DNA from: an uncultured delta proteobacterium
GTDB lineage: Bacteria > Myxococcota > Myxococcia > Myxococcales > Anaeromyxobacteraceae
Assembly (NCBI GenBank): GCA_963814585.1
Contig: CAWFDF010000014.1
Location: forward strand, 256,001 to 320,000
Direction of reading: 5' to 3'
Length of the DNA: 64,000 nucleotides
Positions 1-13,801 of the stretch are shown here, piece after piece. The position numbers and the translations under genes were made by a program. The notes under the pieces are model-generated. The model was not told the origin of the DNA, ran no database searches, and worked only from the letters and a program-made list of their open reading frames with translations. Every line of letters starts with the position of its first letter. Within the stretch, counting starts at the first letter, position 1.

Positions 1-765
1 CCAGGTGCCGAGGAGCACCCGCAGCGCCAGCAGCAGCAGCAGCGTCACCACGCCGTTGAGCACCTGGAACCGCTGCAGCCCGAGCTGGGCGAAGTGCTCG
101 AAGGCGGCGTTCCCGGAGACCAGCAGCTGCACGCCGGGCTGGGCCTCGATCAGCTCGGCCCGGCAGCGCCGCTCCAGCGCGCCGATGGGGCGTGGGTCGA
201 AGCGGCCGAAGCGCGAGCCGCCCGGTGTGTCGCGGAAGACCAGCTCCACCAGCACGTCGCGCCCCGCTCGGTCGGTGAGGATCCCGGCCCAGGGGCTGGC
301 CGCCACGGCCCGCAACGCCTCCGGGGTGGCCGCCGGCATGATGGGGACGAGCCGCAGCCGGTCGTCGACCCGTGAGGGACGCAGCGCCTCGAAGGGCGAG
401 GTGATCCGCACCAGCTCGCTGTTGCGGCCCCGCTCCAGCTCGATCCAGGCCCGGATGGCCTCCAGCTCGGCGGCGGTGAAGGACGCCGCCCTCGGCGTGA
501 AGAAGAGCACCACGCCGTGGCCCGGGCCGAAGTCCCGCTCCATCTCCGCCTGCCAGCGGCTGGCGGGAAGATGGGCGTCGGCCATCTCCCGGATGGAGAG
601 GTGGACCTGGGTGCGCGACGCCTGGGTGGCCAGCGCCACCAGCAGGCCGGCGGCCAGGGCCAGCGTGAGGCGAGGCCGATGCAGGGCCGCCCGGTGCAGC
701 CGAAGCAGCGACCACGCCAGCGGGCGGAGCAGGCGGCGGCCGAGGATGGTGGCTCCGCTGCGCAC
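1..765 (-). CDS. MMPL/RND-family transporter, N-terminal part (runs off the window edge)
   Basis: Not in the ORF track. Manual translation from GTG at 765 (GGAG RBS at 771-774) is open to position 1. It shows one N-terminal TM helix, a soluble loop and then SGNAAFEHF...NGVVTLLLLLALRVLLGTW, the typical MMPL layout. Confidence 0.7.
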   Translation of the reverse strand, partial: MRSGATILGRRLLRPLAWSLLRLHRAALHRPRLTLALAAGLLVALATQASRTQVHLSIREMADAHLPASRWQAEMERDFGPGHGVVLFFTPRAASFTAAELEAIRAWIELERGRNSELVRITSPFEALRPSRVDDRLRLVPIMPAATPEALRAVAASPWAGILTDRAGRDVLVELVFRDTPGGSRFGRFDPRPIGALERRCRAELIEAQPGVQLLVSGNAAFEHFAQLGLQRFQVLNGVVTLLLLLALRVLLGTW

Positions 766-774
766 GCCTGCTCC

Positions 775-1605
775 TCACGCGCCGCGGCGCCGGGTCCCGG
801 CCAGCGACCCCCGATCGGCCACGGACGCGGGAGCGCTGCCGGGGGCCGATCCAGTGGACCGGCCGGGTCGTCGCCTCGTCAGGAACGCCGCCACCGCGTG
901 CCGGGCGAAGTCGCGCCAGCGGATCTCGGCGATGCAGGCCAGCTCCTGCCCGTCGCGCCAGCCGGGGTTGCGATCGAGGAAGAAGCGCACCCCCGGGTCG
1001 GCCAGCGCCTGCGCCGATGGCTCGGCCAGGCGGCCGCGCACCGCCCCGTGGCTCTCGCCGAAGTCGATGATGCCGCGGGCCGGGTCGAAGGCGCCGGGGT
1101 AGCGGGACGTGTAGTAGGCCTCCAGGACCCGCTGCAGGGACGGCGGCGTGGGGGCGTCGTGGCGCGGGAAGCCGCGCGGGAAGTGGTGGCTCAGGAGCAG
1201 GTAGGTCTTGAACCCCTTGCTGATGAGCATCCAGTACACGGGACCCAGCGGGTGGCGGAGCCGGGTGCGGAGCATGAGGAGGAAGAAGGCCCGCTGCAGC
1301 ACCCCCTTCCCCTGCCAGGACGCGTCCACCACGGTGTCACCGGAGAAGAGGCAGGTGGCTCCCGGGACCCCCGGCACCGGGCCGCGCCCGGCCGTGCTGA
1401 AGCCGACCAGCCGTCCCGGCCAGCGGCGTGGCCGGCCGGGCTCGGGCGCGAAGAAGAGCAGCGCGTGCGTCTTCTCCCGCAGGTCGGCGAGGAAGCGCTC
1501 GATCGTGACGTCGACGTAGGAGCGCTCGAAGAGGTCGAACATGCGCCGCGCGTCCAGCTCGTCGAGAGCCGGGACCGGCATCGTCCTGGAGACGACGTGG
1601 GGCAT
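775..1605 (-). CDS. Hypothetical protein, probable GNAT-like fold
   Basis: ATG at 1605 with a GGGGAG RBS. LVGFS...LFSGDTVVDASWQGKG resembles GNAT motif A. Lies 10 bp upstream of the MMPL gene. Confidence 0.7.
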   Translation of the reverse strand: MPHVVSRTMPVPALDELDARRMFDLFERSYVDVTIERFLADLREKTHALLFFAPEPGRPRRWPGRLVGFSTAGRGPVPGVPGATCLFSGDTVVDASWQGKGVLQRAFFLLMLRTRLRHPLGPVYWMLISKGFKTYLLLSHHFPRGFPRHDAPTPPSLQRVLEAYYTSRYPGAFDPARGIIDFGESHGAVRGRLAEPSAQALADPGVRFFLDRNPGWRDGQELACIAEIRWRDFARHAVAAFLTRRRPGRSTGSAPGSAPASVADRGSLAGTRRRGA

Positions 1606-1703
1606 CCTGCTCCCCCGCCAGGGCCTCACCGCTCTCTGGCGACCGGGGGCATGATAGCCCGACCCGGGCTGGAGGTGGGGCGGGGTCCGGGAAAGGGGAG
1701 CCG

Positions 1704-3278
1704 GTGCAGGGCCTGTTCGCTCGGATCGCCGTGGCCAGCCAGCGCCCGGCCTGGCGCCGCTTCCGGCGCGCCCTCGACGACGTCGAGGGCGCGCAGCGCC
1801 GCTGCCTGGCCCGGCTGCTCCCCTCGGCGCTGGCCTTGAACCCCGGCGCCGCGGCGCGCCTCGGACCTGGGGCCTCCTGGGAGGAGGTGGGACGAAGGCT
1901 TCCGCTCACCACCTGGGAGGACCACGCCGGCTGGATCGGGGCGCTCCGGGCGGCGCCCCCCGGCCCGGCCGGACCACTTCGCTTCGAGCCCACCAGCGGC
2001 TCCACCGCGGCCCGAAAGTGGATCCCCTGCCCGCCCACCTTCCTCGCCGAGCTCGACGAGGCCGCCTCGGCCTGGATGGCCGGCGCCGCCGATGACCACC
2101 CGGGGATCCTGGGTGGACCGCACTACTGGTCGCTCTCCTGGCTTCCCGACGACCTGCGCGCCGCGGGCCAGGGGAGCGATGATCTCGCCCTGCTCCCGCC
2201 GCTGGCCCGGCTGGTGCTGCGGCGGCTCATGGCGGTGCCCGGCGCCATCGCCCGCCTGCCCAGCTCCGAGGAGGCGCTGGCGGCCACCCTGGTCCACCTG
2301 GCGGCGCGCCCCGACCTGGCGCTGGCCTCGGTCTGGAGCCCGACCTTCCTGCTGCGGCTGGTCGAGGCGCTGGCGGCGCGGCGCGAGCAGGTCGCGGCGG
2401 TGCTGGCGTCCGGGCGCTGGGAGGCCGGCGGGCTCACCATCCCCTGGGCGGCGCCGCGTGCTCCCTCGGCGGCGCGACGGCTGCGCGAGGCGGGCCGCCA
2501 GCCCGGCCCATCCCTGACCCGGGCGCTCTGGCCGCGGCTGGCGCTGATCAGCGCCTGGGACTCGGCCTCCTCCCGCCCTTACGCCGCGGCGCTCCGCGCC
2601 CTCGTCCCCCACGCCGCCTTCCAGCCCAAGGGGCTGTGGGCCACCGAGGGGGTGGTCTCCATCCCCTTCGCCGGCGAGCACCCGCTCGCCCTCACCAGCC
2701 ACGCGCTGGAGTTCCGCTGCCTGGCCAGCGGCGCGGTGCTGCCGCCCTGGAGGCTGGAGGCCGGGCAGGAGGTGCAGCCGGTGGTGAGTGGCGCCCACGG
2801 GTTGCTCCGCTACCAGCTGCCGGACCGGCTGCGGGTGTCCGGCTTCCTGCATCGCGCCCCCTGCGTGGAGTTCCTCGGGCGGCTCGGCGGCGTCGACCTG
2901 GTGGGCGAGAAGGTGGACGCCGTCCTGGCCCAGCAGGTGCTGGAGCTCCTGGCTGCCGAGGGGCTGGCCCGCCCCATCGCGCTGCTGGCCGGGCCGGTGG
3001 GCCAGGGTCTCCCCTGCTACCGGCTGCTGGCAGCCCCCGGGGAGCGCGGCGCGGCGCCGGAGGCGGTGGCCGGGCGGGCCGAGGCCCTGCTGCTGCGCCT
3101 GCACCACTACCGGCTGGCGCGCGAGCTGGGCCAGCTCGGTCCGGCCCGGGCCGAGGTGCGAGCCGACGCGCTCGAGGAGTACCATCGCCTGGTGGGCCGC
3201 CCGGCCGGAGCCGACGGGCAGGTGAAGGTCGAGCCGGTGGTGGCGCTGCCGGCGGCGAGGGGGGACGCGTGCGGTTGA
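1704..3278 (+). CDS. GH3 family (acyl acid-amido synthetase-like) adenylating enzyme
   Basis: GH3-type motifs: LPLTTWED, FEPTSGST, GLWATEG, GLLRYQLPD, EFLGR...DLVGEKV. Confidence 0.85.
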   Translation: MQGLFARIAVASQRPAWRRFRRALDDVEGAQRRCLARLLPSALALNPGAAARLGPGASWEEVGRRLPLTTWEDHAGWIGALRAAPPGPAGPLRFEPTSGSTAARKWIPCPPTFLAELDEAASAWMAGAADDHPGILGGPHYWSLSWLPDDLRAAGQGSDDLALLPPLARLVLRRLMAVPGAIARLPSSEEALAATLVHLAARPDLALASVWSPTFLLRLVEALAARREQVAAVLASGRWEAGGLTIPWAAPRAPSAARRLREAGRQPGPSLTRALWPRLALISAWDSASSRPYAAALRALVPHAAFQPKGLWATEGVVSIPFAGEHPLALTSHALEFRCLASGAVLPPWRLEAGQEVQPVVSGAHGLLRYQLPDRLRVSGFLHRAPCVEFLGRLGGVDLVGEKVDAVLAQQVLELLAAEGLARPIALLAGPVGQGLPCYRLLAAPGERGAAPEAVAGRAEALLLRLHHYRLARELGQLGPARAEVRADALEEYHRLVGRPAGADGQVKVEPVVALPAARGDACG

Positions 3279-4639
3279 CCCTGATCCACCCCTGCATCGG
3301 CCGGATCCCGGGACGCCGCTACATCCGCAGCTGGCAGATGGAGCCGCTGCCGGCCGCTCACCTGGCCGGGCTGACGCCGCCGGACGTGGCGATCTCCTTC
3401 TGGGACGACCGGATGGAGGCCATCCCCTACGACGCGCCCACCGACCTGGTGGCCGTGAGCGTCGAGACCTACACGGCGCGGCGCGCCTACGAGATCGCCA
3501 GCGAGTACCGGCGGCGAGGGGTGCCGGTGGTGATGGGCGGCTTCCACGCCACGCTGCAGCCCGGGGAGGTGGCCAGCTACGCCGAGGCGGTGGTGGTCGG
3601 CGAGGCCGAGGAGACCTGGCCGCGGCTGCTCGAGGACGCCCGCGCCGGGCGGCTGCAGCGCGAGTACCGGGCCGGCGCGCGGCCGGACATCTCACGCACC
3701 CTGCCCGACCGCCGCCTCTTCCGCGGCAAGCGCTACCTGCCGGTGGCGCTGGTCGAGGCGGGGCGCGGCTGCACGTTCCGCTGCGAGTTCTGCGCCATCC
3801 AGAGCGCCTTCGGCGCCACCCAGACCCGGCGTGGCGTCGAGACCATCGTCCGCGAGATCGCCGACATGCCCGATCGACGGCGACTCTTCTTCTTCGTCGA
3901 CGACAACGTGGTGGCCCACCCGCGCGAGGCCAAGGAGCTGTTCCAGGCGCTCATCCCGCTGCGCATCCGCTGGGTGGGCCAGGCCACCGTCACCATGGCC
4001 CAGGACGAGGAGCTGCTCGACCTGATGCGGCGCAGCGGTTGCCAGGGCGTGCTCATCGGCCTGGAGAGCCTCGACGCCCGCAACCTGGCCGACATGAACA
4101 AGTCCTTCAACGCCGATCGGCTGCCGCCGGCCCAGGTGGTGCGCCGGCTGCACGCCCATGGGCTGCGGGTCTACGCCACCTTCGTCTTCGGCTACGACCA
4201 CGACACCGCCGAGAGCTTCGAGGAGGCGATCGACTTCGCGGTGGGCGAGCGGATCTTCATGGTGGCCTTCAACCACCTGACGCCGTTCCCGGGCACGCCG
4301 CTCCACGACCGGCTGGAGCGCGAGGGGCGGCTGATCTACCCGCGCTGGTGGCTCGACCCCCGCTACCGCTATGGCCAGGTCCCCTTCCACACCGCCGTGC
4401 CGCCGGAGGAGATCGACCGCCGCTGCGTGGCGCTGCGCAAGCGCTTCTACTCGCCCGGCTCCATCCTGCGCCGGATGGGCAACCTGACCAACGTGGCCAG
4501 CGGGAAGATGCTGCACCACTACCTCTTCATCAACCTGCTGCTCCGCCGCGAGGCGGCGGAGCGCGAGCAGTACCCGCTGGGCGATCGGTCCTTCCGGGGA
4601 TCGCTCCTCCCGGTGGCCGGCGCCCCGGCCCTGGACTGA
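3269..4639 (+). CDS. B12-binding domain radical SAM protein
   Basis: GTG at 3269 overlaps the GH3 stop. B12-binding domain (VVMGGFHAT, VVVGEAE), CxxxCxxC (GCTFRCEFC), FVDDN, IGLES and TPFPGT motifs. Confidence 0.92.
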   Translation: MRLTLIHPCIGRIPGRRYIRSWQMEPLPAAHLAGLTPPDVAISFWDDRMEAIPYDAPTDLVAVSVETYTARRAYEIASEYRRRGVPVVMGGFHATLQPGEVASYAEAVVVGEAEETWPRLLEDARAGRLQREYRAGARPDISRTLPDRRLFRGKRYLPVALVEAGRGCTFRCEFCAIQSAFGATQTRRGVETIVREIADMPDRRRLFFFVDDNVVAHPREAKELFQALIPLRIRWVGQATVTMAQDEELLDLMRRSGCQGVLIGLESLDARNLADMNKSFNADRLPPAQVVRRLHAHGLRVYATFVFGYDHDTAESFEEAIDFAVGERIFMVAFNHLTPFPGTPLHDRLEREGRLIYPRWWLDPRYRYGQVPFHTAVPPEEIDRRCVALRKRFYSPGSILRRMGNLTNVASGKMLHHYLFINLLLRREAAEREQYPLGDRSFRGSLLPVAGAPALD

Positions 4640-4643
4640 TCGG

Positions 4644-5759
4644 GTGGCCGGGGTCGAGCTCTACCTGGCGGGACCCGCCGACGACGCCGGCCTGCGGGCG
4701 CTGCTGCGGGAGCTCTCCAGCGGCGGCGCCCTGCGCCTGGCGCTCTGGCACGAGCCGGACTACTTCGCGGCCATCGAGGTGGAGGGGCGCGATCCGGTCG
4801 TCGTCACCGGGCGCGGGCCGGACGGCCGCATCGTCGTGGTGGGGGTCACCACGTGGAGGGACGTCTACGTCAACGGCGCGCCGGCCACCGTCGGCTACCT
4901 GAGCGGCCTCCGGTTCCACCCGCGGCACCGAGGCCGCGGGATCATCCAGCGCGGCTTCGCCCTGGCCCACGGCGAGCACGCCAGGCGGCCGGCCCTGCTC
5001 TTCCTCTCCACCATCATCGAGGGCAACGCCCCGGGCCGGCGCGCCCTGGGCGGGCGGCGCCCCGGCCTGCCCCACTTCGCGCCGCGCGGTACGTACCTCA
5101 CGTTCACCTACGCGCCGCGCGGCGATCCCTGGCGGGCCCGTGCCGCCCGGGGCGTGGAGGTGGCGGCGGCGGACGGCGCCGACCTGGAGCCGCTGGCCGC
5201 CCTGTGGCGGGCCGAGGGGCCGCGGCGGCAGTTCTTCCCCGTCTACCGGGCCGACGACCTGCGCCGGGCCGACGGCCTGCTGCGCGGCCTCGCCCCCCGA
5301 GACGTGCTGGTGGCCCGGGAGGGCGGTCGGGTCGTCGGCACGCTCGGGCTCTGGGACCAGCGGCCGTTCCGGCAGTGGGTGGTGGCCGGCTACTCGCGCC
5401 CCCTGGCCGTGTCGAGGCCCTTCTACAACGCCTTCGCCGCCGTCACCCGGCGGCCGCCGCTCCCGCCCCCTGGCGGGATCCTCGACCTGCGGCTCGGGGC
5501 GCTCCTCTGCACCGAACGGGACCGACCGGAGGTGCTGGCTTCCCTGCTCTCGGCCGCCTGGCGAGCCCTGCAGGCGAGGGCCCCGGGAGCGCTCCTCTCC
5601 ATCGGCGTGCACGAGCGCGACCCGCTGCGCCCACTGCTCGGCGCAGCGCCGCACCGGCTGCTGCGCAGCCGGCTCTACGTCCCCCACTGGCCGGAGGGGA
5701 CCGCGGCCCACGCCGCGCTCGACGATCGCTGCCCCTTCCTCGAGCTGGGCTCGCTCTGA
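4644..5759 (+). CDS. GNAT-fold protein (probably two GNAT-like domains)
   Basis: VGYLSGLRFHPRHRGRG matches the acyl-CoA-binding motif A. Starts 4 bp after the radical SAM stop. Confidence 0.7.
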   Translation: MAGVELYLAGPADDAGLRALLRELSSGGALRLALWHEPDYFAAIEVEGRDPVVVTGRGPDGRIVVVGVTTWRDVYVNGAPATVGYLSGLRFHPRHRGRGIIQRGFALAHGEHARRPALLFLSTIIEGNAPGRRALGGRRPGLPHFAPRGTYLTFTYAPRGDPWRARAARGVEVAAADGADLEPLAALWRAEGPRRQFFPVYRADDLRRADGLLRGLAPRDVLVAREGGRVVGTLGLWDQRPFRQWVVAGYSRPLAVSRPFYNAFAAVTRRPPLPPPGGILDLRLGALLCTERDRPEVLASLLSAAWRALQARAPGALLSIGVHERDPLRPLLGAAPHRLLRSRLYVPHWPEGTAAHAALDDRCPFLELGSL

Positions 5760-5801
5760 CTTGACAATCGTTGCCCCTTCCTCGAGCTGGGCTCTCTCCG
5801 A
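5718..5801 (+). repeat. Imperfect 42-bp tandem duplication of the gene 3' end
   Basis: 5718-5759 versus 5760-5801: 37 of 42 bases identical, with a shared core tgccccttcctcgagctgggctc. Confidence 0.9.
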
Positions 5802-5819
5802 GCCTGGCGGGCCGGCGCC

Positions 5820-7271
5820 CTACCCGCAGGACGCGCCGCGCCCGGCCGGCGCGTCCGCGCCGACGAGGTGGACCCCGGCCGGAAGCACCTCGCCTGGCTC
5901 GGGCAGCGCGGGCGCCTCCTGCCCGGCGCCCACCGCCGCCGTCGGCCCCCCATCGCCGAGGAACCAGTCGCAGGTGTAGAAGCGCTGCAGGTTGCGGGCG
6001 TAGAAACGGTAGCCGAGGTTGGCAGCCAGCGAGACCTGGGGGGCCACCCGGGCCCGCCAAAGGCGCGAGGCGATGGCCGAGAGCGAGTAGGTGTGCCTCC
6101 AGGCCCACTCGTGACCCCGCTGCAGCGCCTCCGGCGTCATGTGGCGCGGGCGGAAGACCACGTGCTGCGCGTCGTAGAGCTCCCAGTTCCGGTGGAGGAT
6201 GCGCCCCTCGGCGTCCAGCCGGCGGTGCAGCGGCGTCCCCGGGAACGGCGTCACGATGGCGAAGCGCGGCAGGTCGATGGCCGCATCGACGGCGAAGCGG
6301 GCGGTCCTCTCGAAGACGTCGGGGGTGTCGCCGTCGAGGCCGAAGGCGAAGCAGCCCATCAACGAGATGCCGTGGCGGTGCAGATCGGCCACCATGGCCT
6401 TGTAGCGCTCCGGATCGTTGAACCCCTTCCGGGTCTGCCCCAGCGAGGCCTCGCAGAGCGACTCCAGCCCCATCAGCAGCCCGGCGCAGCCGCTGCGCGC
6501 AGCCAGCTCGAGCAGCTCGCGCTCCAGGGCGATGAGCGTGGTGGCCAGGCCGTACCAGCGGACCTTCAGCGGGATCAGCCCCTCGAAGAGGCGGGCCGCA
6601 TAGCGCGGATCGGACACGAGGTTGAGGTCGACGAAGAGCACCCGGCGGGCCCCGACCTGCCGGATGTCGGCGATCACGTCCTCGACCGGCTTCTGGTACT
6701 GCTTCCGCCCCCAGGCCGCCGGGGCCACGCAGAACTCGCAGTCATGGGCGCAGGAGCGGGTGGCCTCGAAGACCGCGCTGGTCAGGTAGCGGCCAGGATC
6801 GAGCAGCTCGCGCCGCGCGAAGGGCAGCCCGGCCAGGGAGAGGTCGACCCCCTGGAGGTAACGCCGCCGCAGCCGCCCGGCGCGGAAGTCGCGCAGCAGC
6901 TCCGGCCAGGTCTGCTCGGCGTAGCCCACCACCACGGCGTCGGCGTGGCCGGCCGCCTCGTCGGGGAGGAGCGTCGGGTGCGGCCCGCCCAGCACCGTCG
7001 TGACGCCGCGGGCCCGCAGCCGGTCGGCCAGCTGGTAGGCGCGCGGGGCGTTGCCGGTGATCAGGGTGATGCCCACCAGGTCGGCCTCGAGGCGATCCGG
7101 ATCGACCTCGGCGATCCCCTCGTCGACGATCTCCACCGAGGCCCGCAGCTCGGCCGGGACGTAGGCGGCCAGGGTGGTCAGGGTCAGCGGCGCGTAGCGC
7201 AGCGATCGCGGGAAGATGCCGCCGCGGTGGCGGTAGAGCGGCCCCTTGGGCGAGATCAGCGCGATGCGCAC
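5820..7271 (-). CDS. B12-binding domain radical SAM protein (second copy)
   Basis: GTG at 7271 with a GGAGG RBS. VLGGPHPT, SCAHDCEFC, MGLES and TPFPGT motifs. Confidence 0.92.
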   Translation of the reverse strand: MRIALISPKGPLYRHRGGIFPRSLRYAPLTLTTLAAYVPAELRASVEIVDEGIAEVDPDRLEADLVGITLITGNAPRAYQLADRLRARGVTTVLGGPHPTLLPDEAAGHADAVVVGYAEQTWPELLRDFRAGRLRRRYLQGVDLSLAGLPFARRELLDPGRYLTSAVFEATRSCAHDCEFCVAPAAWGRKQYQKPVEDVIADIRQVGARRVLFVDLNLVSDPRYAARLFEGLIPLKVRWYGLATTLIALERELLELAARSGCAGLLMGLESLCEASLGQTRKGFNDPERYKAMVADLHRHGISLMGCFAFGLDGDTPDVFERTARFAVDAAIDLPRFAIVTPFPGTPLHRRLDAEGRILHRNWELYDAQHVVFRPRHMTPEALQRGHEWAWRHTYSLSAIASRLWRARVAPQVSLAANLGYRFYARNLQRFYTCDWFLGDGGPTAAVGAGQEAPALPEPGEVLPAGVHLVGADAPAGRGASCG

Positions 7272-7419
7272 GGGCCCCTCCCTCCCGGACTCCACGCCCA
7301 GCATGGCACGGCCCGCGGCCGGGAGCGCCCCCTCGTCCGGGCTGCTCCCATCTGCCGCAGAGGCGGACGCCTGCGCCAGGCCCGTGGTGGTGGACCGGTC
7401 CGTCCGGGCCCTGGACGCC

Positions 7420-7872
7420 CTAGGTGTCCAGGCTCGCCAGCAGCACCTTGCGCATGCGGACGTGGGGGACGCCCTCCTCGAGGAAGGTCTCCCCCTCCTG
7501 CGTGTACCCGCGCCGCTCGAAGAACCTCACCGACGGGAGCTGGGCGTGCAGCACCACCTCGGCGATGCCGCGCAGCACCGCCATCCGCTCCAGGGCGTCC
7601 ATCACCAGCGCGCCGACGCCATGGCGACGGTGCTCGGCGGCGACCGCCATCCGGCCGATCTGGACCACGCGGTTGTCGCGCCGGACGAAGCGGCCCGTTC
7701 CGACGCAGCGCCCCTTCTCGTCGAAGGCCACCACGTGGTTGGCCTGGTGGTCGAGCGCGTCGCGGTCGAGGGGGCGCGGGACGTTCTGCTCGACCTCGAA
7801 GACCTGCTGCCGGAGGGCGTAGGCGGCCTCGCGATCGGCCTCGGTGGATGCGTAGCGGACGGAGTAGGTCAT
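7420..7872 (-). CDS. GNAT N-acetyltransferase (ElaA/YjcF-like)
   Basis: LRQQVFEVEQNVP, IGRMAV...RRHGVG and LHAQ...FFERRGY...FLEEGVPHVRM. Confidence 0.9.
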   Translation of the reverse strand: MTYSVRYASTEADREAAYALRQQVFEVEQNVPRPLDRDALDHQANHVVAFDEKGRCVGTGRFVRRDNRVVQIGRMAVAAEHRRHGVGALVMDALERMAVLRGIAEVVLHAQLPSVRFFERRGYTQEGETFLEEGVPHVRMRKVLLASLDT

Positions 7873-7981
7873 GCCCCATTCCTAACCGAACCGGGGCCGG
7901 CTCCGCCACCCGGCCATCGCCGGCGGGGTCGCCGCGGCCGGGAGGTTGCCTGCGGGCGGCCGCTGGGCTACCACCGCGGTC

Positions 7982-10288
<2,307 letters not shown>

Positions 10289-10810: not shown

Positions 10811-12627
10811 TCAGGCGGGCCTGGCCTGGCCGCCGGCCGGAGGCGCCTCGGCGCGCCTCCAGAAGCGCCGCGGCGCCAGGGCCAAGGCCATCAGGGCCAG
10901 CTGCGAGGCGCAGAAGGCCGCGAGCGACCAGAAGGCCTTGTCCATGAAGCCGTAGGAGTGGAGCCCAACGCCCAGCATGTTGACGCCGAACCAGGAGAAG
11001 CGCGGTGATGACGTTGCCGAAGATGGCCATGGTCATGATGCCGCGGTCTGGCGCACGTAGCCGCCCCAGCGGGCGTGCAGGATGACGGCGTTCCAGAGCA
11101 CGATGAGCAGGGCGCCGTTCTCCTTGGGATCCCAGCCCCAGAACCGGCCCCACGACTGGTCGGCCCAGATGCCGCCGAGCACGGTGCCGACGAAGCTGAA
11201 GAAGAGCGCGAAGCAGATGACCCCGTAGACCATCGACACCAGCGCCTTGTCGGTGGCCGGCAGGAGCCTCGGCGCCAGGTGCTTGCGCAGCGCCCAGCCG
11301 ATGGCGATGGCCGCCGGCCAGGAAGGTCGCCGGAGTAGCCGATGGTGATGATGGTCACGTGGGTCGCCAGCCAGAAGTTGGAGTCGAGCACCGCCCGCAT
11401 CATCTCCATGGTGTCGCCGTCACCGGTCAGGTGGTGCGCCACGATCAGCGAGGCGAAGCCGACCGAGGCGGCCACCGCGGTGCCGAAGCCCTTGCGGTAC
11501 ATGCGCTCGAGGATCACGCCGAGCACCACCGCGCCCCAGCCGACGAAGACCGCGGACGAGTAGAGGTTGGTGACCGGCGGGCGTCCCTGCAGGATGACCC
11601 GCGAGACCAGCCCGCCGGTGTGGACGATGGTGCCGGCGAGGAGCAGCGCGAAGGCCGAGGACTGCAGCAGCTCCGGTCGCCAGAGCCAGGAGGCGAAGAC
11701 CAGCAGCAGGGCCGCCACGTAGATGACCATGCCGGAGTAGAAGGGATCGACGCGGTTGAAGGCGATCTCGTGGTCGCCCTGCGCCACCGCCTCGGGCTTG
11801 GCCGCCACGCCAAAGGCCCGCAGCTCGGCCACGGCGGCGTTGAAGCCGGCCACGTCGCCGGCGCTCCAGGCCGCGCCGACCCTGGCCAGGGTGGCCAGCC
11901 CGGCGTCGGCCCGGCCCCCCCCGGCGGCGTCCCGCAGCGCCTCGCCGACGCTGCGCCAGCCGGCCTGCAGGTCGCCCTGCGGCGGCAGCGGCCGGAAGAA
12001 GGCGGCGCCGGCGAGGAGCGCGTGGCGCTGGCTCGCCGTGGGCTCGGTCACCGCCGCCAGCTCCGCGGCCAGCGGCCGGTTGCCCGGCACCTGCACGGTG
12101 TTCTGCAGCCGCAGGTAGAGGTCGATCCGCTGGTAGAGGTTGACCACCGCCCCCTGGAAGCGGCTCCGCTGCTTCGGGTCGATGGGCTCGGCCACCGCGG
12201 CCTGGTTCTGGATCTCGCCGAGGTACGGGCGGATGTCCCGGAAGGCGAAGTAGCGGTTGGACTGGGAGAGCTTCTGCCCGATCAGCGAGAGCACGTCCGG
12301 ATCGTTGATGACGAAGGCCGGCTGGGCGTCCGCCACCTCGGGCCGGAAGAGGACGTCGAGGATCCACTCGTCGGCCCCCACGGTGTGGGCCCTCTTCTGC
12401 CCGCCGGCCTCCTCCTCGAAGCGGAAGCTCATCTGGCTGCGGATCATCAGCAGCGAGTTGCGGGCCACCGAGTCGATGGGCTTGATGCGCCCGCCCTCCA
12501 GCACCGGCAGCCGCCCGAAGGCGTCCACGTCCATCCCGCGCACCGGCGGGGCCGGCCGCAGCCCGGAGGCGACCCACGCCAGCGCCAGCGCCCCCACCAC
12601 CCACGGCCCGTACTTGGCGAGCTTCAT
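10811..12627 (-). CDS. ccsA: Cytochrome c biogenesis protein CcsA/ResC (long form), frameshifted as sequenced
   Basis: GRPPVTNLY, LDSNFWLATHV, the WWD domain WADQSWGRFWGWDPKE and GVGLHSYG are spread over several frames. Indels near 11330, 11313, 11048 and 11001. Confidence 0.88.
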
Positions 12628-12628
12628 G

Positions 12629-13801
12629 TCATGCCTCCGCGGCGGCACGCCGCCTGAGCGCCCTGCGCAGGGAGATGCCGAAGTGGACCATCAGCCCGAT
12701 CCCGACCAGCACGCAGGAGATGTAGGGGAGCAGCCAGCCCGGGTTCTCCACCACCTGGAGGATGGAGAGCGTGTCGTTCTTGCCGAAGCTGGACTGGTAG
12801 AAGGCCTTGCCGCCGTAGCGCAGCGGCTGGTTCATGTAGATGAGGACGTCGCGGGACTCGCCCTCCCTCGGGTTGGAGAGGTGCACCAGGCTGGAGAAGT
12901 TCTTGGGGATGGTGGTCCCCTCGTAGACGTCGTGGCTGAAGTTCTTCAGCGTCATCGAGTAGGGGAGGTACTGGCGCCGGGGGCGCATCGCCATCGAATA
13001 GGTGCGCCCCTCGTGGATGAACCCCTGCGGCGCGCCGAGCTGGCCGGAGACCAGCCAGGCGCCGTAGCTGCGCCCGCCCGCCACCGGCTCCACCACCGCC
13101 GCCGGGACGTTGATGCGGTCGTCGGCGACCACCGCCCGGAGCGGCTGGACCGCCACGCCGGCGCCGACCCCCATGTTGGCGACCGGCTGGAACCCCGGGG
13201 CCGCCATGGAGAGCTGCGCGTTCTCCCAGTAGCGGCGGACCCGGAGGACCAGCGGCGTGCCCGGGACCTGCACCAGCCCGCCGTCGGCCAGCAGGCCCTC
13301 GGGGATGGAGTGGACCACGTCCCAGGCCGGATCGGTGGCGTCGACGACCACCAGCTCCTGCTCGCGCGTGTGCTCGACGTAGTTGACCGTCTGCCCCTCC
13401 TCGATGGCCAGCTGGGTCTCGACCTGGAAGACGCCGGTGACGAACTCGCCGACGAAGAGCAGGATCAGGCCGGCGTGCACGATCCAGATGCCGGCCTTCT
13501 TCCAGGAACGCTCCAGCCGCTGGCCCTGGGCCGCGGCCAGGTTCACCATCAGCACCAGGCCCACCAGCGCCCCGCCGGGGAAGACCGCGAGCGACCAGCC
13601 GGTGCCGGGGACCTGCCACCAGACCAGGAAGCTGCGCATGTAGAGGTTGACGGCGCCGAGGACGCCGAGCTGGACCTGCGCCAGCGTGCAGGCCACCACC
13701 AGCGCCATGAGGAGCGCCAGGCAGACGATGGTGAGCTTGAGGGACGTCAGCACGTCCCAGAGCCGGTGCGCGGCGAAGCTGGCGGAGTTGGACTCAGTCA
13801 C
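12629..13801 (-). CDS. resB: Cytochrome c biogenesis protein ResB/Ccs1 family
   Basis: LTSLKLTIV, IVHAGLILL, PKNFSS and IYMNQPLRYGGKAFYQSSF motifs. Directly upstream of ccsA. Confidence 0.88.
   Translation of the reverse strand: MTESNSASFAAHRLWDVLTSLKLTIVCLALLMALVVACTLAQVQLGVLGAVNLYMRSFLVWWQVPGTGWSLAVFPGGALVGLVLMVNLAAAQGQRLERSWKKAGIWIVHAGLILLFVGEFVTGVFQVETQLAIEEGQTVNYVEHTREQELVVVDATDPAWDVVHSIPEGLLADGGLVQVPGTPLVLRVRRYWENAQLSMAAPGFQPVANMGVGAGVAVQPLRAVVADDRINVPAAVVEPVAGGRSYGAWLVSGQLGAPQGFIHEGRTYSMAMRPRRQYLPYSMTLKNFSHDVYEGTTIPKNFSSLVHLSNPREGESRDVLIYMNQPLRYGGKAFYQSSFGKNDTLSILQVVENPGWLLPYISCVLVGIGLMVHFGISLRRALRRRAAAEA

Follow-up and report, generated by a model that had tools for sequence, protein, structure and literature searches.

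A putative amide-lipid gene cassette with a GH3 ligase, two GNAT-fold proteins and four B12-dependent radical SAM enzymes in a myxobacterial genome

Introduction

What might a bacterium make with a GH3-family ligase, two GNAT-fold proteins, several B12-dependent radical SAM (rSAM) enzymes and a membrane exporter encoded side by side? Such a combination opens the window analyzed here, a stretch of 64,000 nucleotides from an uncultured member of the Anaeromyxobacteraceae (contig CAWFDF010000014.1, positions 256,001 to 320,000). The question reaches beyond this genome: the literature searched documents a proven product for a single bacterial GH3, and for most B12-rSAM families there is none.

Organization of the locus

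All six genes of the original prediction were confirmed at their positions. The cluster had been said to continue past the left edge of the window, and inspection of that flank bore this out: two more B12-rSAM genes follow the MMPL gene leftward, so that the rSAM enzymes number four (rSAM3 and rSAM4 lying beyond the edge) instead of the two first counted. The cluster is therefore larger than first described, with eight tightly packed genes over 11.4 kb. Its features are as follows, in window coordinates unless the contig is named.

Contig 251904-253272, left of the window, minus strand: rSAM4, B12-dependent radical SAM; 4-bp overlap
Contig 253269-254573, left of the window, minus strand: rSAM3, B12-dependent radical SAM, 434 aa; 4-bp overlap
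Contig 254570-256765, minus strand: whole MMPL/HAE3-like gene, 731 aa
1..765, minus strand: 5' part (first 255 codons) of the MMPL/HAE3-like membrane exporter
775..1605, minus strand: GNAT-A, 276 aa, a single GNAT-fold domain, family unnamed, core
1606..1703, no strand: intergenic stretch of 98 bp separating the divergent gene runs
1704..3278, plus strand: GH3, acyl-adenylate/amide ligase (by family), 524 aa, core
3269..4639, plus strand: rSAM1, B12-dependent radical SAM, 456 aa, directly before GNAT-B
4644..5759, plus strand: GNAT-B, tandem GNAT with NMT/Eis-like fold, 371 aa, core
5718..5802, plus strand: final 43 bp of GNAT-B with their direct repeat, which stands right after the stop codon
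5820..7271, minus strand: rSAM2, B12-dependent radical SAM (alternative ATG start at 7304)

The predicted spacing also held, with a 10-bp overlap between GH3 and rSAM1 and a 4-bp gap between rSAM1 and GNAT-B. The divergent gap, given as about 100 bp, measured 98 bp and lies between GNAT-A and GH3; rSAM2, on the minus strand, converges on the operon across 60 bp from GNAT-B, as claimed. Only 9 bp separate GNAT-A from the MMPL gene. The repeat copy behind GNAT-B is identical to the 3' end of the gene at 37 of 43 positions. No sigma-70-like promoter or terminator was matched within 1500-8000, the divergent gap included. For a small GNAT gene at 7420-7872 the only homologue lies in a same-genus locus, and for that reason the gene was not counted in the cluster. 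Four runs of one freshwater-sediment study contain 72-81% of the sequence words and could be among those from which the DNA came; no RNA sequencing run was listed in the run search.

The ligase and the two GNAT-fold proteins

The GH3 protein matched PF03321 (E 2e-14) and PF23571, the two domains scoring 54 and 39.9 bits against a cut-off of 23.6. It carries three nucleotide-binding motifs, TSGSTAARK, WATE, and GLLRYQLPD, which correspond to motifs printed for AtGH3.11 and OlsH, and residues S98, G99, K105, T314, E315, R369, and D374 were invariant among 72 homologues. The enzyme is predicted to adenylate a carboxylic acid and form an amide; OlsH makes N-acyl-ornithine from ATP and a free fatty acid (PMC12493201, in excerpt). 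In a tree, the cassette GH3s branch apart from planctomycete GH3s (30 loci, none with OlsH's printed motifs among the variants listed), except for that of locus L137, which falls inside. A complex prediction of GH3 with GNAT-A scored 0.00, which bears neither for nor against an association.

GNAT-A (1605-775) had no Pfam or NCBIfam match, yet its label as GNAT-like was upheld by a structure model (pLDDT 88) with a GNAT fold. Its best fold matches are N-terminal acetyltransferases, led by NatD (Z 13.4, rmsd 2.8, 156 aligned), and the top 50 rows of the fold search were all GNAT-fold acyltransferases. The family is large (1,467 homologues in one search). Sequence searches of the PDB gave nothing useful for GNAT-A or GNAT-B, and Atlas matches for both were only to unnamed or GNAT clusters.

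GNAT-B (4644-5759) matched PF00583 and was modeled at pLDDT 95. Tandem GNATs and N-myristoyltransferase-type (NMT) enzymes tied as its fold matches: MAB_4324 (Z 22.1, rmsd 3.5, 298 aligned), C. parvum NMT (Z 21.3, rmsd 3.7, 293 aligned), and yeast NMT (Z 21.1, rmsd 3.5, 302 aligned). The ties include acetyltransferases, and a shared fold is no proof of function. Alignments of the NMTs and of most Eis-type matches reach model residue 371, and the C-terminus stands exactly four residues past an E or D in 59 of 59 aligned GNAT-B sequences. This fixed register fits a catalytic C-terminus; in NMT, the C-terminal carboxylate is the catalytic base (PMC7048800, in excerpt). Homology to NMT was not found at the sequence level, there being no NMT among the PDB or Pfam matches of the protein or its alignment.

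The NMT-like fold and C-terminus, along with the resemblance of GNAT-A to N-terminal acetyltransferases such as NatD, would also suit lipidation of a peptide or protein, with GNAT-B acylating the N-terminus, GH3 supplying or ligating the acyl part, and the rSAM enzymes C-methylating the peptide. We consider this quite unlikely: no gap in the cluster exceeds 98 bp, which leaves no room for a precursor gene, no recurring peptidase or peptide transporter appeared among the annotated neighbor families, and the rSAM enzymes scored low against RiPP families.

Four B12-dependent radical SAM enzymes

An N-terminal B12-binding domain and the CX3CX2C radical SAM motif are kept in all four rSAM enzymes. 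Matches to the B12-binding and Radical_SAM domains each exceeded the Pfam cut-offs for rSAM1 and rSAM2, as they did for rSAM3; the B12 domain of rSAM4 scored 27.4 bits, below the cut-off of 32.1. The rSAM4 gene may be broken in this genome, judging from a frame change near codon 392, and is intact in three relatives. Members of the rSAM2 clade have GYAE in place of GEAE and DLN in place of DDN. The four enzymes represent separate orthologue groups, each with a member on a Citrobacter plasmid, and in a tree the cassette rSAMs form two clades of their own. Curated cut-offs were not reached for any of the named B12-rSAM families compared (HpnJ, HpnP/R, BchE, PhpK, ladderane TIGR04072, KedN5, and ApyD), although no HpnP model was among the match lists: no score of the four enzymes exceeded 88 bits, the cut-offs being 251-775 and the best score 87.7 against 600.

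The original prediction had proposed possible C-methylation, and an account that keeps the same amide-lipid core could make all four enzymes ordinary class B C-methyltransferases, the gene patterns described below then reflecting swapped, unrelated tailoring modules. Annotated B12-rSAMs are mostly methylases, methyl transfer being what the class most often catalyzes (PMC9204698, in excerpt); the conserved domain and motif agree with this, the four weak sequence matches in the PDB include TokK and CysS, and in some loci the rSAM genes occur together with Rieske or desaturase genes. The scores, on the other hand, fall far short of the cut-offs of all named methylase families, and the cassette enzymes match HpnJ, BchE, and the ladderane-linked family as well as or better than they match most named methylases. 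BchE and HpnJ are B12-rSAMs able to oxidize or rearrange rather than methylate (PMC9204698, in excerpt). Given also the genomic position of rSAM1, we judge uniform methylation rather unlikely.

The weak matches to HpnJ, HpnR, HpnN, and DUF4070 could instead point to tailoring or transport of hopanoids or sterols, by HpnJ/P/R-like rSAMs and an HpnN-like exporter, and SdmA is the best NCBIfam match of a neighboring Rieske type. Every one of these scores, that of SdmA included, is far below its cut-off, no squalene-hopene cyclase (PF13243) was found in the genome (91.7% complete), and we know of no place for GH3 or GNAT proteins in hopanoid or sterol pathways; this explanation is very improbable.

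A conserved core with variable tailoring and export

The genes were expected to co-occur in other genomes. Co-occurrence is wide for a core of GNAT-A, GH3, and GNAT-B; it fails for the six genes as one fixed unit, the rSAMs and the MMPL-like exporter being accessory. Among 43 fully flanked loci (at least 19 kb, found with GNAT-A), GH3 was present in 41, GNAT-B in 33, and both in 32. Across all 80 GNAT-A loci, the corresponding counts were 64, 52, and 48, with MMPL-like genes in 15 and cassette-type rSAMs in 8. Related loci are spread over many bacteria that are not close kin, with Bdellovibrio, Alkanindiges, Alcanivorax, Pseudomonas, Acidobacteria, Gemmatimonadaceae, and Myxococcales among them, and the neighboring genes encode lipid enzymes: desaturases, fatty-acid hydroxylases, PAP2, P450, and Rieske proteins.

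Immediately 5' of GNAT-B, 73 loci carried rSAM1 (23), GH3 (23), a Rieske gene (18), or another gene (9), a count in which 24 loci had been chosen for rSAM1 (inflating its share), L038 and L144 are duplicates, and kin are not independent. That rSAM1 occupies a slot filled by a Rieske oxygenase in other loci points to oxidative chemistry at least as much as to methylation. No GNAT-A locus had both an rSAM and an oxygenase (0 of 80: rSAM only 8, oxygenase only 44, neither 28), nor did any of 20 Myxococcota loci (rSAM only 7, oxygenase only 7, neither 6). Within the loci compared, rSAM1/2 were never found with the GH3-adjacent Rieske clade, which also speaks against uniform methylation. The exclusion is not absolute: a second type of Rieske gene is present in 3 of 24 metagenome loci selected for rSAM1 (L140, L145, and L147), of which L140 carries a desaturase as well, and the Citrobacter plasmid locus has a desaturase. 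Since 28 of the 80 loci lack both tailoring genes, neither tailoring step is essential. Two neighbor families are labeled 'diiron' here largely as our assumption, their only matches being AurF (E 0.006) and MiaE (E 0.07); the oxygenase counts do not depend on this label, because each locus with a member of these families contains a Rieske gene as well. The genome under study encodes a single Rieske domain and a single desaturase, neither of them on this contig. It holds other B12-binding genes; CobS was not found in it (91.7% complete), so B12 would be salvaged.

The exporter passed as an MMPL protein (PF03176), but marginally, at 20.7 bits against a cut-off of 20.5. It has about 10 hydrophobic segments and matched HAE3 at E 7e-7, with HAE3 and HpnN both far below cut-off. 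An exporter (MMPL, RND, MATE, MacB, or EmrB) was present in 24 of the 43 full loci, within 3 kb in 22, as compared with 10 of 209 windows of the same genome and 1 of 13 control loci; the queries came from cassette loci, so these counts favor kin, and with them 19 of the 43 showed no exporter. In Acinetobacter baumannii a TolC-type gene lies between GH3 and GNAT-B. The pump in this run is presumably A1S_1772/1773 (EmrAB). GH3 was not mentioned in the excerpted literature passages on it.

Such arrangements invite the idea that the cassette inactivates carboxylic acids from outside, fatty or aromatic, by conjugation and export, much as plant GH3s act on hormones, with oxygenases or rSAMs preparing the substrate and pumps removing the conjugate. 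It would account for core-only loci of Moraxellaceae and Alcanivorax flanked by an AraC regulator and an RND pump, for the HlyD, MFS, and TolC-type genes that form one run with GH3 and GNAT-B in A. baumannii, and for exporters of five families among the cassette loci. Many loci lack a pump, however, most retain two separate acyltransferases, and four or five specialized B12-rSAM paralogues with PAP2 and desaturases look biosynthetic. We therefore regard inactivation as improbable.

Proposed pathway

The best reading of the locus, predicted from genes alone, remains the exported acyl-amide product of the original prediction. With middling confidence, we propose that the eight genes form one pathway to an amide lipid that bears several acyl groups, is modified by the four B12-rSAMs in oxygen-independent steps, and is exported. 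The order of steps would be as follows: on the grounds of its family and motifs, GH3 would use ATP to convert a free fatty acid to its adenylate and then couple the acyl group to an amino acid or diamine, in the manner of OlsH. GNAT-B would then transfer a second acyl group from acyl-CoA to a free amine, with the carboxylate of its C-terminus serving as base as in NMT, a step suggested by its fold and fixed C-terminus. GNAT-A, of modeled fold, may add a further acyl group. Gene order suggests that rSAM1, whose usual partner is rSAM2, would attack an unactivated C-H bond and take over, without oxygen, the role that the Rieske oxygenase has in aerobic versions; further changes, possibly the addition of methyl groups, would fall to rSAM3 and rSAM4. 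Finally, the MMPL-like protein would export the product.

A more specific proposal can be made only tentatively: rSAM1 and rSAM2 could oxidize, desaturate, or cyclize an unactivated acyl chain without oxygen, a step that a Rieske oxygenase would otherwise perform, and the exported amide lipids, assembled by GH3 and a bacterial NMT-like enzyme, would belong to a widespread and so far undescribed family. If they do replace the oxygenase, the B12-dependent and the Rieske enzymes would constitute a new lipid-modifying pair, one for anaerobic and one for aerobic conditions. The cassette would connect an unnamed GNAT family and an NMT-like acyltransferase with five B12-rSAM groups, likewise unnamed, in one pathway. 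Versions occur in culturable hosts, namely Myxococcus xanthus (by annotation), Bdellovibrio, Alkanindiges, the Citrobacter plasmid, and A. baumannii, and thus the product should be findable by knockout and lipidomics.

Comparison with known systems

In keeping with the earlier statement that no characterised product was known, the searches made matched no characterised pathway, and no description of the cassette was found in the literature searched, which covered sources other than subscription journals and bioRxiv supplements; the putative amide-lipid cassette is likely undescribed. The homospermidine-lipid (hsl) cluster of M. xanthus was rejected as its identity because it lies elsewhere in that genome (hsl genes listed as MXAN_1676, 1678, and 1688; GH3 run at MXAN_7124-7128). 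In that run of strain DK1622, MXAN_7125 is the GH3 gene and MXAN_7124 the Rieske gene, and their expression is reported to be low.

The cassette rSAMs share a B12-binding domain, a radical SAM domain, and a length of about 450 aa with BchE, HpnJ, the ladderane candidate, HpnP/HpnR, TokK, and CysS (PMC9204698, in excerpt), but differ in their scores and separate clades. GNAT-B shares with eukaryotic NMTs and Eis-type tandem GNATs the two-GNAT fold, the alignment to the last residue, and the fixed C-terminal register (PMC7048800, in excerpt); unlike them, it is encoded in a bacterial operon, at about 10% identity and with no PDB sequence match.

The Legionellol cluster likewise places a GH3 (lpg2225) among genes for an exported acylated-diamine surfactant, but has ketosynthases and an ACP where the cassette has GNATs and rSAMs; its GH3 is dispensable, the surfactant being unchanged in the knockout (PMC5640695, in excerpt).

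The nearest known system is the OlsH/OlsI ornithine-lipid pathway (with OlsG) of Singulisphaera acidiphila, to which the cassette does not belong. No OlsI-type alpha/beta-hydrolase is among the eight assigned genes, and no OlsB/OlsF-type PF13444 was found in the genome (91.7% complete). In both systems the ligase is a bacterial GH3 of about 525 aa that carries three nucleotide-binding motifs and shares its operon with a tailoring enzyme and another enzyme that transfers acyl groups (PMC12493201, in excerpt). They differ in motifs 2 and 3 (WATE and GLLRYQLPD in the cassette, YPCSE and GMWSHLIGD in OlsH) and in the partners of the ligase: an alpha/beta-hydrolase for the second step and an N-methyltransferase for tailoring in the ornithine-lipid pathway, two GNATs and four B12-rSAMs in the cassette (PMC12493201, in excerpt).

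Genomic context and cluster layout

All six genes of the original prediction were confirmed in the window, which spans C14:256001-320000 of a 4.3 Mb host assembly of 91.7% completeness. The nearest named relatives of the window genes were a Myxococcales and an Anaeromyxobacter MAG (80% identity), pointing to a probable Anaeromyxobacter-like host, and the G+C content of the cluster (0.75) was near that of its contig (0.73). The cluster does continue past the left edge, as claimed. Both of the predicted B12-dependent radical SAM genes (rSAM1 and rSAM2) are present, but the count of two fell short: the left flank on contig C14 raises it to four.

C14:253269-254573, minus strand: rSAM3, B12-dependent radical SAM gene
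C14:251904-253272, minus strand: rSAM4, B12-dependent radical SAM gene

The minus-strand run rSAM4-rSAM3-MMPL-GNAT-A is separated by a 98-bp gap from the plus-strand run GH3-rSAM1-GNAT-B, on which rSAM2 converges; the MMPL gene, rSAM3, and rSAM4 are joined through 4-bp overlaps. A frame change was observed near codon 392 of rSAM4 in the host assembly; three related loci from other genomes or metagenomes (L027, L139, and L108) are open through the same region, and rSAM4 of L029 seemingly also loses frame late. Two further genes of the window were labeled by eye. One, a 780-aa frame (window 7946-10288), resembles glutaminyl-tRNA synthetase and continues into a long C-terminal extension. The other (window 10891-12648) resembles a cytochrome c biogenesis membrane protein; its frame is seemingly lost towards the C-terminus, pointing to indel errors in this assembly.

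The final 43 bp of GNAT-B are repeated directly after its stop (window 5718-5802; 37/43 identical), and unrelated DNA is inserted at the same point in two close relatives (about 0.65 kb in L027 and about 2.9 kb in L028); this site may thus be an insertion hot spot. Same-genus locus L027 also carries a fifth radical SAM gene, rSAM5 (2358-3752), between rSAM2 and a small GNAT; rSAM5 was not found in the host, either at window 7271-7420 or elsewhere in the assembly.

Conserved core and cassette variants

A GNAT-A profile built from 46 of 120 listed homologues was run on the species-genome collection, yielding 570 confirmed stretches, of which the best 80 were kept for counts. The expected co-occurrence held for GH3 (64/80), GNAT-B (52/80), and both together (48/80), but much less so for the MMPL-like gene (15/80) and cassette-type rSAMs (8/80). 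Within the 43 of these loci that were at least 19 kb long, the corresponding counts were 41, 33, 32, 10, and 4. GNAT-B was present in 83 of 301 genomes of the host's phylum (61/115 in one large family, 3/39 in the host's own), and GH3 in 14 of 101 genomes, the host included. Based on these counts, the core is GNAT-A, GH3, and GNAT-B, and it is patchily distributed in the host lineage. In an Acidobacteriaceae MAG (L072 9980-12391), GNAT-A and GH3, two genes in sister loci, are continuous in a single frame of about 800 aa, through either a genuine fusion or an indel in the assembly.

Three cassette types were distinguished. Type 1 is the core alone, often with an AraC regulator on one side and an RND pump on the other (Moraxellaceae, Alcanivorax). 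Type 2 (Bdellovibrionota, Acidobacteria, Gemmatimonadota, Myxococcota) adds further genes to the core: Rieske oxygenases, desaturases, fatty-acid hydroxylases, P450, PAP2, and an RnfD-ASPIC fusion. The fusion, an RnfD-like membrane domain joined to FG-GAP/ASPIC-UnbV repeats, accompanies the oxygenase-type cassette in 21 of the 80 loci, among them L037 (7083-9893), and resembles the enediyne UnbU/UnbV genes. At MXAN_7124-7127 of M. xanthus DK1622, a match to the cassette by annotation and gene order only, Rieske and GH3 genes are followed by a hypothetical gene of 774 bp and then the RnfD-ASPIC fusion (PMC9548883). Type 3, to which the window's cluster belongs, carries B12-dependent rSAMs. A Citrobacter plasmid encodes GNAT-A, GH3, rSAM2, rSAM1, GNAT-B, rSAM3, rSAM4, PAP2, a fifth rSAM, and a desaturase. 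In A. baumannii, HlyD, MFS, GNAT-A, GH3, a TolC-type gene, and GNAT-B form a single run.

Radical SAM enzymes and oxygenases

The cluster's rSAMs are 38-48% identical to one another. In a phylogeny of 111 sequences, each scoring at least 225 bits over 320 residues and with shorter sequences excluded, the core-linked enzymes all belonged to one of two clades: rSAM1/3/4, with a support of 0.999, and rSAM2/5, with 0.998. In the latter, G[YF]AE replaces GEAE and DLN or DPS replaces DDN (commonest variants listed). Since rSAM1-rSAM5 form five separate groups, each with a Citrobacter member, they are old, specialised paralogues. None of the cluster's rSAMs reached a named B12-rSAM family by family-model score, and PDB sequence matches were weak (AprD4, E 3e-10; TokK; CysS). 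That they are plain methylases seems unlikely.

From a metagenome scan with rSAM1, 80 of 427 loci were kept. A core gene was found in 16 of the first 24 and in none of the remaining 56; the eight core-less among the first 24 comprise six contigs <3.2 kb, one match at a contig end, and L150, with rSAM1 alone. Elsewhere, rSAM5 and a membrane-protein region share a single long frame, apparently as a fusion (L048 14909-18868, also with an MMPL-like match; L142 12605-16294; L051 8481-10793). Non-B12 radical SAM genes adjoin the cassette in L155 (7866-10261) and L042 (17330-18508), one of them best matching TrsS and the tetraether synthase Tes, at 130 bits where the cut-off is 450.

Immediately upstream of GNAT-B, the gene was rSAM1 in 23, GH3 in 23, Rieske oxygenase in 18, and other in 9 of 73 loci, a count that takes in the window's own locus and loci selected for rSAM1. 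rSAM and oxygenase occurred together in 0/80 GNAT-A loci and in 0/20 Myxococcota loci hand-picked from the 83 GNAT-B genomes; against exclusion, both are present in L140, L145, L147, and the Citrobacter locus. The Rieske genes of the three L-loci best match a second type, and the one in L140, unlike those in L145 and L147 long enough for the tree, falls in the separate clade of that type. In a GH3 tree of 109 sequences, the window's GH3 sits among oxygenase-type and core-only loci, and rSAM-bearing loci appear in several places; the tailoring module was thus likely swapped more than once.

Acyltransferases, export, and proposed pathway

GNAT-A is predicted to consist of a single GNAT domain extended at its C-terminus. 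Its closest structural match is NatD; LasI (Z 11.7) and FeeM (Z 10.8) score little lower, and on this model no subfamily can therefore be named. The GNAT-B model is a tandem GNAT, its structural matches tied between MAB_4324 and NMTs, and an acidic residue lies fifth from the C-terminal end in 59/59 aligned members. Eis uses its terminal carboxylate as a base. In NMT, the acceptor amine is deprotonated by the terminal carboxylate, which serves as the base (PMC7048800). We infer that GNAT-B acylates an amine. Lipidation of a peptide or protein is improbable.

An exporter, drawn from five families, was present in 24/43 full loci (in 22 of them no more than 3 kb from a core gene), in 10/209 host-genome windows, and in 1/13 control loci, a contrast overstated by taking the queries from cassette loci. 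Together with the TolC-type gene within the A. baumannii run, these counts suggest that the product leaves the cytoplasmic membrane. We doubt that the cassette serves conjugation and efflux of outside acids, and consider tailoring of triterpenoids highly improbable. In the scheme we propose, and to which as a whole we give an even chance, further acylation would fall to GNAT-A and GNAT-B, and oxygen-independent modification of C-H bonds to the rSAMs, with export of the product handled by the MMPL-like protein.

Comparison with known systems

The cassette is real, widespread, and testable. No description of it was found in the literature searched. In the available part of a 2026 amino-lipid review, GH3 is named only for OlsH, and the words 'GNAT' and 'radical' are absent (PMC12971839). 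The hsl cluster was rejected as the identity of this one. The first step is likely similar to that of the OlsH route to ornithine lipids, but the cluster is not a member of that route, because OlsI is absent and two GNATs occupy its place.
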